Assembly: GCF_058153355.1 (NCBI RefSeq)
Contig: NZ_CM177019.1
Strand: one strand, 5' to 3'
DNA length: 64,000 nucleotides
Position 1 is the stretch's first letter; each line of letters opens with the position of its first letter. The notes beneath the pieces are model-generated. The model searched no databases, had not been told where the DNA came from, and saw only the letters and a list, made by a program, of their open reading frames with translations. Positions 23,669-29,271 of the stretch are shown here, piece after piece. The position numbers and the translations under genes are program-made.

Positions 23669-23696
23669 GATGGGGCTGAAAGGCCCCATTTTTATT
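23669..23696 (+). terminator. putative hslVU terminator
   Basis: TGGGGC-TGAAAG-GCCCCA hairpin followed by TTTTTATT. Confidence 0.6.
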
Positions 23697-23706
23697 GGCG
23701 CGTATT

Positions 23707-24633
23707 ATGACTGAACAACAAATTAGCCGAACTCAGGCGTGGCTGGAAAGTTTACGACCTAAAACCCTCCCCCTCGCCTTTGCTGCAATTATCGTCGGGA
23801 CGGCGCTGGCATGGTGGCAAGGTCACTTCGATCCGCTGGTCGCCCTGCTGGCACTGATTACCGCCGGACTGCTTCAAATTCTCTCTAACCTCGCTAATGA
23901 TTACGGCGATGCAGTAAAAGGCAGCGATAAACCTGACCGCATTGGCCCGCTACGTGGCATGCAAAAAGGGGTCATTACCCAGCAAGAGATGAAACGGGCG
24001 CTCATTATTACCGTCGTCCTCATCTGTCTCTCCGGGCTGGCGTTGGTTGCAGTGGCGTGCCATACGCTGGCCGATTTTGTCGGCTTCCTGATTCTTGGCG
24101 GGTTGTCGATCATTGCCGCTATCACCTACACCGTGGGCAATCGTCCTTATGGTTATATCGGTCTGGGTGATATTTCCGTACTGGTTTTCTTTGGCTGGTT
24201 AAGCGTCATGGGCAGCTGGTATTTACAGGCTCATACGTTGATTCCGGCGTTGATCCTTCCGGCGACCGCATGCGGCCTGCTGGCAACGGCAGTACTGAAC
24301 ATTAATAACCTGCGTGATATCAATAGCGACCGCGAAAACGGCAAAAACACGCTGGTGGTGCGCTTAGGTGCAGTAAACGCGCGTCGTTATCATGCCTGCC
24401 TGCTGATGGGCTCTCTGGTGTGTCTGGCGCTGTTTAATCTCTTTTCGCTGCATAGCCTGTGGGGCTGGCTGTTCCTGCTGGCGGCACCATTACTGGTGAA
24501 GCAAGCCCGTTATGTGATGCGGGAAATGGACCCGGTGGCGATGCGACCGATGCTGGAACGCACTGTCAAGGGAGCGTTACTGACTAACCTGCTGTTTGTT
24601 TTAGGGATATTCCTAAGCCAGTGGGCAGCATAA
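23707..24633 (+). CDS. menA: 1,4-dihydroxy-2-naphthoate octaprenyltransferase
   Basis: Native start MTEQQISRTQAWLESLRPKTLP; polytopic membrane protein, 308 aa. Confidence 0.93.
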   Translation: MTEQQISRTQAWLESLRPKTLPLAFAAIIVGTALAWWQGHFDPLVALLALITAGLLQILSNLANDYGDAVKGSDKPDRIGPLRGMQKGVITQQEMKRALIITVVLICLSGLALVAVACHTLADFVGFLILGGLSIIAAITYTVGNRPYGYIGLGDISVLVFFGWLSVMGSWYLQAHTLIPALILPATACGLLATAVLNINNLRDINSDRENGKNTLVVRLGAVNARRYHACLLMGSLVCLALFNLFSLHSLWGWLFLLAAPLLVKQARYVMREMDPVAMRPMLERTVKGALLTNLLFVLGIFLSQWAA

Positions 24634-24725
24634 CTGACAAATATCAATTAACAATTGATGATTTTGCCAACAGCCCACATAGCGCGATATACTGAAAATT
24701 CTCGCAGCAACTGAATGTTAAGCCT

Positions 24726-25211
24726 ATGAAATACGATACTTCCGAGCTTTGTGACATCTATCAAGAAGATGTTAACGTCGTGGAACCGCTGTTCTCCAAT
24801 TTTGGCGGACGGGCGTCGTTTGGCGGACAAATAATCACGGTAAAATGTTTCGAGGACAACGGGTTGCTGTACGATCTGCTCGAACAGAATGGCCGTGGTC
24901 GTGTTCTCGTCGTTGATGGCGGTGGTTCTGTTCGTCGCGCACTGGTCGATGCTGAGCTGGCGCGTCTGGCAGTACAAAATGAATGGGAAGGCCTGGTCAT
25001 TTACGGCGCGGTGCGTCAGGTAGATGACCTGGAAGAGCTGGATATCGGCATCCAGGCGATGGCAGCAATTCCAGTCGGTGCCGCTGGCGAAGGCATTGGC
25101 GAAAGCGATGTCCGCGTTAATTTTGGCGGCGTCACCTTCTTCTCCGGTGACCATCTTTATGCCGACAATACCGGAATTATTCTTTCAGAAGATCCGCTGG
25201 ATATTGAATAA
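24726..25211 (+). CDS. rraA: ribonuclease E inhibitor RraA
   Basis: 161-aa [32 protein letters not shown]. Confidence 0.93.
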
Positions 25212-25227
25212 GTACCTGCCATGCGTT

Positions 25228-25256
25228 AAAAGGGGAATTAAATTCCCCTTTTTTAT
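25228..25256 (+). terminator. rho-independent terminator after rraA
   Basis: AAAGGGGAATT-AAATTCCCCTTTTTTAT hairpin plus T-run. Confidence 0.8.
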
Positions 25257-25469
25257 ATGCAAAATATTCATAAAGACTATCGTTTGTTTTTATTTAATTC
25301 ATTTTAAATATCAATAGTTCACATCTGACAATATAAATTAATTATCGATAAATCATTTCATAAAAATATGCAGCATTAAAAATTAATGCTATATGGTAAA
25401 TTAACTATTCTGGGAATAGGGATATGAATCATCGTTAGTAGCGAACGTATTATATAATAAGGGACTGAT

Positions 25470-26186
25470 ATGAGATACGTTATCTTATTAATACTATGGA
25501 TAATAACTACTTTTCTTAGTCATCTTCAGCACAGCAACCTACTGTCTGGAGATCCTGGCATGGTTGGCGAGTATATCGGTTCAGTATTTCTGGGGCCGTT
25601 GTTACTTCCCGTGCTTGTGTCAGGTATTCTGTGCGCATTTATTAAAAAAAAACGTAACTTCGCCAGTTTTACTCGCGGGTGCTGTTGGGTATTGGGAATC
25701 CTGCTTTTATCCAAAGTCGGCAATACGTTTCGTATGTTTACCCCGTGGCAATATACCTTTGAGAATGCTGCGATAACCGTGACTATCCCGAACCGACACT
25801 GGAATACGGTTTCCATCAGTACTAATAAAACCATTGATATAAGAAGTGAGGATAATAGCGTCTTCATTTCTGCTTTCCGCCTGCCCGCAGGACGTAGCGC
25901 CGATGACCCGCTGGAAGCGTTAAAGAAGAAGCAGCGAGACAATCTCAAGGATCAATACAATGAGGAAGCCTTCCAGTTTCATGATTGTAATGCCAAACAT
26001 TTCACCTGTAAGTATCAGGATGTGTTGATAAATTTTGATGGTCAGCAGAAAAGAACCATCAGTGTTTATCTTGAAGACACCCCCAGGGCTGTGGGGATCA
26101 TTGCATTAATGGCGCCAGATACGGCAGATAAATATCGCCAACAGGCGATGGAGATTATGCTTTCCGCTAAAAATGCAGTGAAGTAA
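25470..26186 (+). CDS. hypothetical membrane protein in an AT-rich insertion
   Basis: 238-aa ORF with ATG 6-7 nt after AGGGA. Two to three N-terminal hydrophobic helices, then a soluble domain of about 150 aa. No family recognised. Upstream 250 bp is strongly AT-rich. Confidence 0.55.
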   Translation: MRYVILLILWIITTFLSHLQHSNLLSGDPGMVGEYIGSVFLGPLLLPVLVSGILCAFIKKKRNFASFTRGCCWVLGILLLSKVGNTFRMFTPWQYTFENAAITVTIPNRHWNTVSISTNKTIDIRSEDNSVFISAFRLPAGRSADDPLEALKKKQRDNLKDQYNEEAFQFHDCNAKHFTCKYQDVLINFDGQQKRTISVYLEDTPRAVGIIALMAPDTADKYRQQAMEIMLSAKNAVK

Positions 26187-26192
26187 AAAATA

Positions 26193-26210
26193 AGGCGCCT
26201 TGCGGCGCCT
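26193..26210 (-). terminator. putative zapB terminator hairpin
   Basis: AGGCGCC-TTGC-GGCGCCT stem-loop with a T-run on the minus strand, immediately downstream of the zapB stop. Confidence 0.55.
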
Positions 26211-26224
26211 CTGCGTGGAAGAGA

Positions 26225-26518
<294 letters not shown>

Positions 26519-26894: not shown

Positions 26895-29271
<2,377 letters not shown>

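Follow-up and report, generated by a model that had tools for sequence, protein, structure and literature searches.

An old, fast-diverging gene between rraA and zapB in Escherichia encodes a predicted three-helix membrane protein with a PsbP-type domain

We analyzed a window of 64,000 nucleotides (nt) from contig NZ_CM177019.1 (assembly GCF_058153355.1; overall guanine-plus-cytosine content, G+C, 50.8%; all feature coordinates are window positions) and found between rraA and zapB a 238-amino-acid (aa) open reading frame (ORF) that encodes a "B-type" member of a small protein family. Comparison of alleles indicates that the ORF is a real gene under purifying selection and not a chance ORF, because six intact Escherichia alleles had low ratios of nonsynonymous to synonymous divergence (dN/dS) and full-length homologues were found in other genera. 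We conclude that the gene, together with the duplication into paralogues A and B, is older than the genus Escherichia at the rraA position. The product is predicted to be anchored by three N-terminal membrane helices and to carry a C-terminal domain of the PsbP/Mog1/DUF1795 fold, and we tentatively propose that it protects the cell by binding an antagonist that reaches the periplasm.

Gene reality, distribution and age

All six Escherichia B alleles that were compared were intact, with pairwise dN/dS values of 0.10-0.28 and synonymous divergence (dS) of up to 0.35. The dN/dS was uniform along the gene (0.16 in the part encoding the membrane helices and 0.17 in the part encoding the domain). 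A sequence-only reading of this DNA had reported a 238-aa ORF between rraA and zapB that ends at the zapB terminator and is preceded by about 250 bp of AT-rich DNA and a good ribosome-binding site. The ORF was present as described, at 25470-26186, with its stop codon five bases ahead of the zapB terminator hairpin; the estimate for the AT-rich DNA was fair (215 bp after the rraA terminator, 258 bp from the rraA stop codon to the ORF start codon), and the Shine-Dalgarno-like motif AAGGGA, five bases before the ATG, was unchanged in all Escherichia alleles aligned.

The RefSeq/PGAP product is 208 aa long and begins at Met31 (WP_123057342, WP_000232687, ECs_4854), which leaves the public proteins without their first membrane helix. 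The distant homologues are 232-241 aa long, and the alignment reaches residue 1 in all of them; Met31 is not kept, being missing from homologues P0019, P0021 and P0024. Codons 1-30 (25470-25559) contained six variable codons that were purely synonymous and three that changed the amino acid, a pattern like that of the remaining gene. Taken together, the 238-aa start is better supported than the 208-aa start of RefSeq, and the 30-residue truncation in public annotation will mislead topology predictions.

The distribution of the gene was surveyed by megablast of positions 25150-26300 against 5426 complete E. coli genomes. The flanks were matched in 5425 of the 5426 genomes, and at least 80% of the query was matched in 674 of them. 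The gene is thus not core: it was missing from K-12 and from ~87% of the complete genomes. The statement in the sequence-only reading that rraA and zapB are adjacent in K-12 was correct (MG1655 b3929/b3928, with an 84-bp gap and no gene between). Three states of the junction were found: empty, tandem A-B, and B alone behind an AT-rich leader. The 84-bp empty spacer of the K-12 type has no sequence in common with the occupied alleles, and the replacement spans stop codon to stop codon, altering both stop codons. The two-gene allele (A then B) is that of O157:H7 (in strain Sakai, A is ECs4855 and B is ECs4854); gene A was found in 661 of the 5426 genomes, and the allele also occurs in IAI39 and UMN026. 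The one-gene allele is rarer, its leader being found in 18 of the 5426. The A and B paralogues align end to end with 29% identity (E = 2e-31), and the window protein is 92% identical to ECs4854.

Outside E. coli, a genome scan matched E. whittamii (92%), E. albertii (89%) and two further Escherichia species. The one-gene arrangement with the same leader was found in E. albertii, E. whittamii and Escherichia sp. E1V33, and the two-gene arrangement in Escherichia sp. MOD1-EC7003. In blastn comparisons, the window aligned collinearly with 8.5 kb of E. albertii at 90.9% identity and with 5.7 kb of E. whittamii at 93.3%, and neither alignment was interrupted at the leader or the gene. The window and E. 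albertii differed by a dS of 0.35 for B, compared with 0.24 for rraA, 0.27 for zapB and 0.66 for menA, which places B within the range of its neighbors. All family members found sit 3' of rraA, the conserved left flank; in other genera the homologues lie directly 3' of it on the same strand, even where zapB is not the neighbor, and in Kluyvera and a relative a rearrangement put pfkA beside the locus in place of zapB. A tandem A-B pair was present in a further enterobacterial genus (locus L012), in which the flanks were only 83% identical at the DNA level. A profile scan of genome contigs, made with a narrower alignment, gave only Escherichia species, and the distribution outside Escherichia rests on protein searches.

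The family diverges far more than its surroundings. Between these genera, RraA was 93-98% identical and MenA 77-94%, compared with only 33-41% for B; DcrB, a housekeeping protein of the same fold, was 78-88% identical over comparable enterobacterial genera. The G+C of family members was 33-44% in every genus and that of their flanks 51-59%, with 43.5% for the B gene of the window.

No mark of mobility was found at the locus: there were no flanking direct or inverted repeats beyond chance size, no integrase and no tRNA. No homologue was detected by tblastn among 50,697 phage records, and among 72,556 plasmid records no copy was found save in a single record of 4.9 Mb, evidently a chromosome. 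The locus thus lacks the features by which a genomic island or mobile insertion is recognized. Because of the collinearity with sister species, the neighbor-like dS, the linkage to rraA across genera and the absence of a mobile signature, the gene does not appear to be a recent insertion, and the K-12-type junction most likely represents loss or allelic replacement and not an ancestral empty site. Of the earlier suggestion of a horizontally acquired insertion, what stands is that the gene is accessory in E. coli and low in G+C; the collinear sister species, the rraA linkage and the missing mobile signature speak against the rest. A foreign-looking locus that is older than the species cautions against equating composition and absence from K-12 with recent horizontal transfer.

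The pattern at the locus is that of a small hypervariable site between conserved genes, and the 3' flank of rraA may be a general variable spot that carries other cargo in other genera. In Atlantibacter (L005 3796-4988), an NlpA/Lipoprotein_9 gene and a small ORF lie between rraA and the family gene. In L012 (6761-7072), a Y1 (RAYT-type) transposase gene lies between the family genes and zapB.

Locus layout, leader and alleles

The features of the locus are as follows.

23695-24633, menA.
24726-25211, plus strand, rraA, encoding the ribonuclease E regulator (ORF list; RefSeq annotation of the near-identical strain EC42405; contexts in other genera).
25228-25254, plus strand, rraA intrinsic terminator: hairpin at 25228-25252 with perfect 12-nt arms, AAAAGGGGAATT/AATTCCCCTTTT, then a T-run.
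25255-25469, plus strand, AT-rich leader of 215 bp with 23.7% G+C, the presumed promoter and 5' untranslated region.
25257-25268, plus strand, ATGCAAAATATT, the apparent vestige of the first four codons (MQNI) of gene A (alignment with O157 and L012; translation).
25459-25464, plus strand, Shine-Dalgarno-like AAGGGA, five bases 5' of the ATG (sequence and Escherichia alignment).
25470-26186, plus strand, coding sequence of 238 aa, B-type family member, orthologue of O157:H7 Sakai ECs4854.
25473-25739, plus strand, codons 2-90, three predicted membrane helices (AlphaFold2, hydropathy, conservation, alignment).
25644-25652, plus strand, A9 homopolymer within the coding sequence (A7 in other Escherichia alleles).
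25740-26183, plus strand, codons 91-238, predicted beta5-alpha-beta4-alpha domain of the PsbP/Mog1/DUF1795 fold.
25986-25988 and 26007-26009, plus strand, codons of Cys173 and Cys180.
26192-26211, minus strand, zapB intrinsic terminator hairpin, reading GAGGCGCCGCAAGGCGCCTT and then ATTTTTT on the minus strand.
26225-26470, minus strand, zapB, the right flank in Escherichia (ORF list; RefSeq annotation).
26895-27740, glpF.

The rraA terminator hairpin is common to the one-gene and two-gene alleles and is missing from the K-12-type empty allele. At the other end, the zapB hairpin read on the plus strand trails the B gene without a T-run. A 14-nt inverted repeat at 26213-26241 (86% complementary), in which sequence downstream of zapB pairs with the last zapB codons, was seen in occupied alleles and could give a second hairpin over the zapB stop codon. 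An Rfam search of the locus returned nothing near threshold.

The leader is kept in the alignment of E. whittamii, E. albertii and Escherichia sp. E1V33. Comparison of the leader with gene A, made in case it is a decayed copy, gave no similarity above shuffled controls beyond the first ~12 nt and the last 19 nt, and homology between the one-gene and two-gene alleles restarts 19 nt 5' of the B start codon. A 16-codon ORF, MQNIHKDYRLFLFNSF followed by a stop, lies at 25257-25306 directly past the rraA terminator, and its first four codons are those of the start of gene A. It is not conserved, its ATG being missing in E. albertii, and is more readily taken for a vestige than for a gene. The T-run of the rraA terminator in the two-gene allele is followed, ~10-15 nt on, by the start of gene A (L002 1562-1625; L012 4940-5003). 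A separate promoter would not fit into this gap, so that A-B expression may depend on read-through past the rraA terminator or on a promoter within rraA.

The A9 run at 25644-25652, which encodes Ile-Lys-Lys-Lys-Arg, is a likely slippage site and could be a slippage hot spot or an on/off switch. Among other strains, P0003 is a +3 variant that stays in frame, P0012 (74 members) and P0016 (68 members) are truncated products, and Shigella dysenteriae contains a copy disrupted by an insertion sequence (IS); P0017 is listed with P0012 and P0016 among the cases of loss, truncation or IS disruption.

At the nucleotide level, the B gene of the window was nearly identical to that of IAI39 (dS 0.013) and distant from that of O157 (dS 0.17). 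Two old B alleles thus occur in E. coli, the O157 type and the IAI39/window type, and the dS of 0.17 between them is about the E. coli-E. whittamii distance at B. The copies set against window positions 25470-26186 were those at L002 2329-3045 and L014 3208-3924. The menA and rraA genes of the window (23707-25211) were unusually distant from those of the other E. coli compared, with dS of 0.11-0.14 compared with 0.02-0.07 among K-12-like strains, O157 and IAI39. A B gene near that of IAI39, next to rraA and menA genes far from those of every other E. coli in the comparison, suggests either a recombination mosaic at this locus or a strain from a divergent lineage.

Family, fold and topology

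An exhaustive phmmer search over 1.84 billion cluster representatives returned only 21 matches, about ten of which were distinct full-length clusters. The named sources were Escherichia, Shigella, Atlantibacter subterraneus, Kluyvera ascorbata and Klebsiella oxytoca, and the family is small, low in G+C, very fast diverging and confined to Enterobacteriaceae. Its members form a B-type clade (the window protein, P0018, P0019 and the B protein of L012), an A-type clade (O157 A, P0021 and P0024) and several more distant singletons. One match, P0032 (1191 aa, repetitive; E = 8.5e-10), was dropped as not a family member, since it matched through a short "FTLTFD..MTVTIP" repeat.

The sequence-only reading could not place the C-terminal domain, and indeed no sequence family covers it. 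Pfam gave only noise for the query and all 15 members (for example, the BOF/YgiW OB-fold at E = 0.33), and the NCBIfam YgiW/YdeI matches (E ~0.05) were rejected because they fell far below the cut-offs and were contradicted by the fold. PF08786 (DcrB/DUF1795) was not matched at E <= 10 by the query or at E <= 0.1 by the 15 members. When the family was compared with a DcrB alignment by hhalign, the probability was 0.2% (E = 0.25), which is not significant, the DcrB alignment being low in diversity. Phmmer against the PDB found no significant sequence match. ECs4854 (WP_000232687) and ECs4855 (WP_001301616) are annotated "hypothetical protein," the UniRef label of the E. albertii orthologue is "DUF1795 domain-containing," and no paper mentioning ECs4854/ECs4855, WP_000232687 or WP_001301616 was found in the literature searched. 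The fold and general architecture are known, and the sequence family is outside any curated model.

An AlphaFold2 model built from a 15-sequence alignment (predicted local distance difference test score, 84.3; predicted template modeling score, 0.71) contained helices at residues 2-26, 29-57 and 64-90, followed by a beta5-alpha-beta4-alpha domain at 93-231. Hydropathy also showed three hydrophobic segments in the N-terminal part, in line with the two or three transmembrane helices and soluble C-terminal domain read from the sequence earlier. The PsbP/Mog1/DUF1795 superfamily is defined by an alpha-beta-alpha sandwich, in which two helices flank an antiparallel sheet of ~6-9 strands, and the modeled domain agrees with this layout. 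The fold relatives, with their figures, were cyanobacterial PsbP (11.6), PA0094/EagT6 (11.5), BT_1490 (11.3), LpqN (10.7), Mog1 (9.5), TplEi, which is a type VI secretion system (T6SS) immunity protein (9.5), SciW (9.0), DcrB (8.5), Tsi3 (8.3) and PA3488 (6.7). Foldseek against AFDB50 recovered the family itself and many uncharacterized proteins of other phyla with N-terminal helices and a C-terminal DUF1795/PsbP domain. The fold matches in BFVD were three phage lipoproteins, with poor global superposition.

Within the family, P107, W111 and C180 are invariant and C173 and Q183 nearly so. P107 and W111 form a "VPxxxW" entry motif, and Cys173 and Cys180 lie on neighboring strands. Mean pairwise identity was 30% in the membrane part and 25% in the domain, and the domain contains no conserved catalytic-type residues. 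A strongly basic loop, KKKRNFASFTR (58-69) in the window protein, connects helices 2 and 3, and the loop contains three to five Lys/Arg in every member. Since the positive-inside rule would keep this loop cytoplasmic, we infer a topology with the N terminus inside and the C-terminal domain in the periplasm, where the conserved Cys173-Cys180 pair would form a disulfide.

Proposed function and comparison with known systems

The PsbP-fold domain would act stoichiometrically, by binding a protein or peptide partner and keeping it on the periplasmic side of the inner membrane. Binding is suggested rather than catalysis because the domain lacks conserved catalytic-type residues and the characterized fold relatives all bind something: photosystem II in the case of PsbP, effector helices in that of the Eag chaperones, lipids in that of LpqN, and effectors, which are thereby neutralized, in that of Tli4, Tli5 and Tsi3. 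The partner would be an antagonist that reaches the periplasm, and the protein would either confer orphan immunity against a toxin that acts in the periplasm or prevent the entry of phage genomes. We favor such a protective role only tentatively, with less than even confidence. It is suggested by the dispensability of the gene, the retention of two old paralogues, the combination of fast divergence between genera with moderate constraint within a lineage, and the foreign composition at a fixed locus. PsbP/MOG1-like proteins are also known from T6SS toxin operons and, fused to immunity proteins, from polyimmunity loci (PMC3482391).

Several results weigh against this proposal. In the contexts read, no toxin, secretion or phage gene stood beside B; the neighbors were rraA, zapB, pfkA, an esterase, a major facilitator superfamily transporter, an AraC regulator, an NlpA-like lipoprotein and a RAYT transposase. 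The sequence-only reading had named phage-exclusion, abortive-infection and immunity genes as typical cargo of such insertions; PADLOC matched 0 families, and PHROGs gave nothing below E = 0.15. The best relevant match of the family profile in the PDB was PA3488 (Tli4_C) at E = 0.11, which is not significant and serves as a lead only. The same fold occurs in DcrB, LpqN and PsbP, which are not immunity proteins. Pairwise dN/dS, at ~0.17 throughout, gave no sign of positive selection or of an arms race focused on the periplasmic domain. The third of the hydrophobic segments is a short, borderline one (Kyte-Doolittle peak, 1.33), which makes the placement of the domain in the periplasm insecure. 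Finally, a promoter scan of the locus stayed at chance level, with one weak promoter-like match at 25318-25345 that was not above chance.

A possible, though doubtful, alternative is that the protein is a DcrB-like envelope-maintenance factor, with a periplasmic domain tethered by three helices and not by lipid, and that it has no role in conflict; lipoprotein maturation, membrane homeostasis or a transporter could be the process served. Conservation of the membrane part equals or exceeds that of the domain, so the helices may contact a membrane partner, and both the even purifying selection along the gene and the stable site beside housekeeping genes, free of any mobile or defense context, would suit such a factor. 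A maintenance role fits poorly, however, with a gene that ~87% of E. coli dispense with, that diverges far beyond DcrB (33-41% compared with 78-88% identity), that is low in G+C in every genus and that has neither significant profile-profile similarity to DcrB nor a PF08786 match in 15 members.

The protective proposal can be stated more broadly, in a form that we consider unlikely: A and B would represent a hitherto unrecognized class, in Enterobacteriaceae, of chromosomally fixed, three-helix-anchored PsbP-fold determinants of periplasmic protection against T6SS, colicin or contact-dependent toxins or phage entry, with no linked toxin, the old and strongly diverged alleles (none, B, A+B) being kept at the one locus by frequency-dependent selection.

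Widespread absence and fast divergence would also be explained if the protein were a component exploited by antagonists, such as a receptor or entry cofactor for phages or bacteriocins, the loss of which is favored. DcrB, of the same fold, is labeled "phage sensitivity protein DcrB" in public records; loss, truncation and IS disruption have occurred repeatedly (P0012, P0016, P0017), the coding sequence contains the slippage-prone A9/A7 tract, and two old, divergent B alleles (dS 0.17) coexist in E. coli. We consider this improbable, because genus-long purifying selection requires a benefit of the protein's own, which this explanation does not supply, and no phage or bacteriocin user is known or was found.

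More improbable still is a recently acquired, H-NS-silenced single-gene island between rraA and zapB. The steps in G+C (gene, 43.5%; leader, 23.7%; window, 50.8%), the patchy occurrence in E. coli and the stop-to-stop replacement relative to K-12, with nothing in common, would all agree with recent cargo. Recent acquisition is, however, largely refuted by the collinearity with sister species and by a dS that fits the flanks, and the position kept across genera, the lack of repeats and mobility genes and the absence of the family from phages and true plasmids argue in the same direction. The H-NS consensus motif TCGATAAATT had one 9/10 match at 25345-25354, and its count in the window was not above chance. 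A decaying relic without present function deserves almost no credence: some O157-type strains and Shigella dysenteriae do have truncated or IS-disrupted copies, gene A has a dN/dS of 0.64 (O157 compared with IAI39, few substitutions) and has already been lost from the window allele, but B is intact in all six Escherichia alleles at dN/dS 0.10-0.28, and its start codon, Shine-Dalgarno motif and leader are kept across species.

Among known systems, DcrB/DUF1795 (PF08786; PDB 6e8a) resembles the window protein in its inner-membrane tether, in a domain presumed to be periplasmic and in a beta-strand followed by an "LP/VP..." entry motif, the hhalign alignment between the two being not significant. 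DcrB is anchored through a lipobox and is 78-88% conserved, whereas the window protein is anchored by three helices, accessory and hyperdivergent; no DcrB-type lipobox was found at its N terminus, MRYVILLILWIITTFLSHLQ, where the three hydrophobic helices lie instead. The T6SS immunity proteins TplEi/Tli4 (5h7y), PA3488 Tli4_C (7wdk/5xmg) and Tsi3 (4luq) would share with it a periplasmic location and action by binding, both predicted for the window protein, and, like its family, occur as divergent paralogues. They differ in that no significant sequence relationship was found (best E = 0.11) and in that the window family is fixed beside rraA and does not lie in effector or immunity islands, with no effector or T6SS gene nearby in the contexts read. 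The Eag chaperones (EagT6/PA0094, 1tu1; SciW, 6xrb) are soluble, cytoplasmic and encoded beside prePAAR effectors, whereas the window protein is predicted to span the membrane with three helices, contains a conserved Cys pair and is not encoded near an effector. The same architecture is found in AlphaFold DB proteins with RDD- or DUF4190-type N termini and a DUF1795/PsbP C terminus (Foldseek E values of 1e-9 to 1e-7), which are themselves uncharacterized and differ in their membrane modules and in sequence (12-18% identity).

The closest relatives are ECs4854/ECs4855 of O157:H7 and the orthologues in E. albertii, E. whittamii and Shigella boydii, which belong to the same family and occupy the same locus as the window gene. 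For the E. albertii orthologue, which follows the same leader, identity with the window protein is 89%; the O157 type differs by an extra upstream paralogue where the window has the AT-rich leader. O157:H7 Sakai has, beside rpmE and ~8 kb from ECs4854/4855, an rhs element annotated as rhsD, "type IV secretion protein Rhs" (L019 49004-50000; Sakai 4929004-). The ECs4854/ECs4855 pair was present in essentially all O157:H7 genomes sampled and in other D/E/F-type strains (IAI39, UMN026), and the family extends to E. albertii; being absent from K-12, it has never been touched by laboratory genetics. Should the protective proposal hold, the pair would extend the enterobacterial repertoire by an immunity or exclusion determinant that is fixed in the chromosome and not linked to a toxin; should the DcrB-like alternative hold, it would represent a lineage-specific envelope factor of pathogenic E. 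coli.

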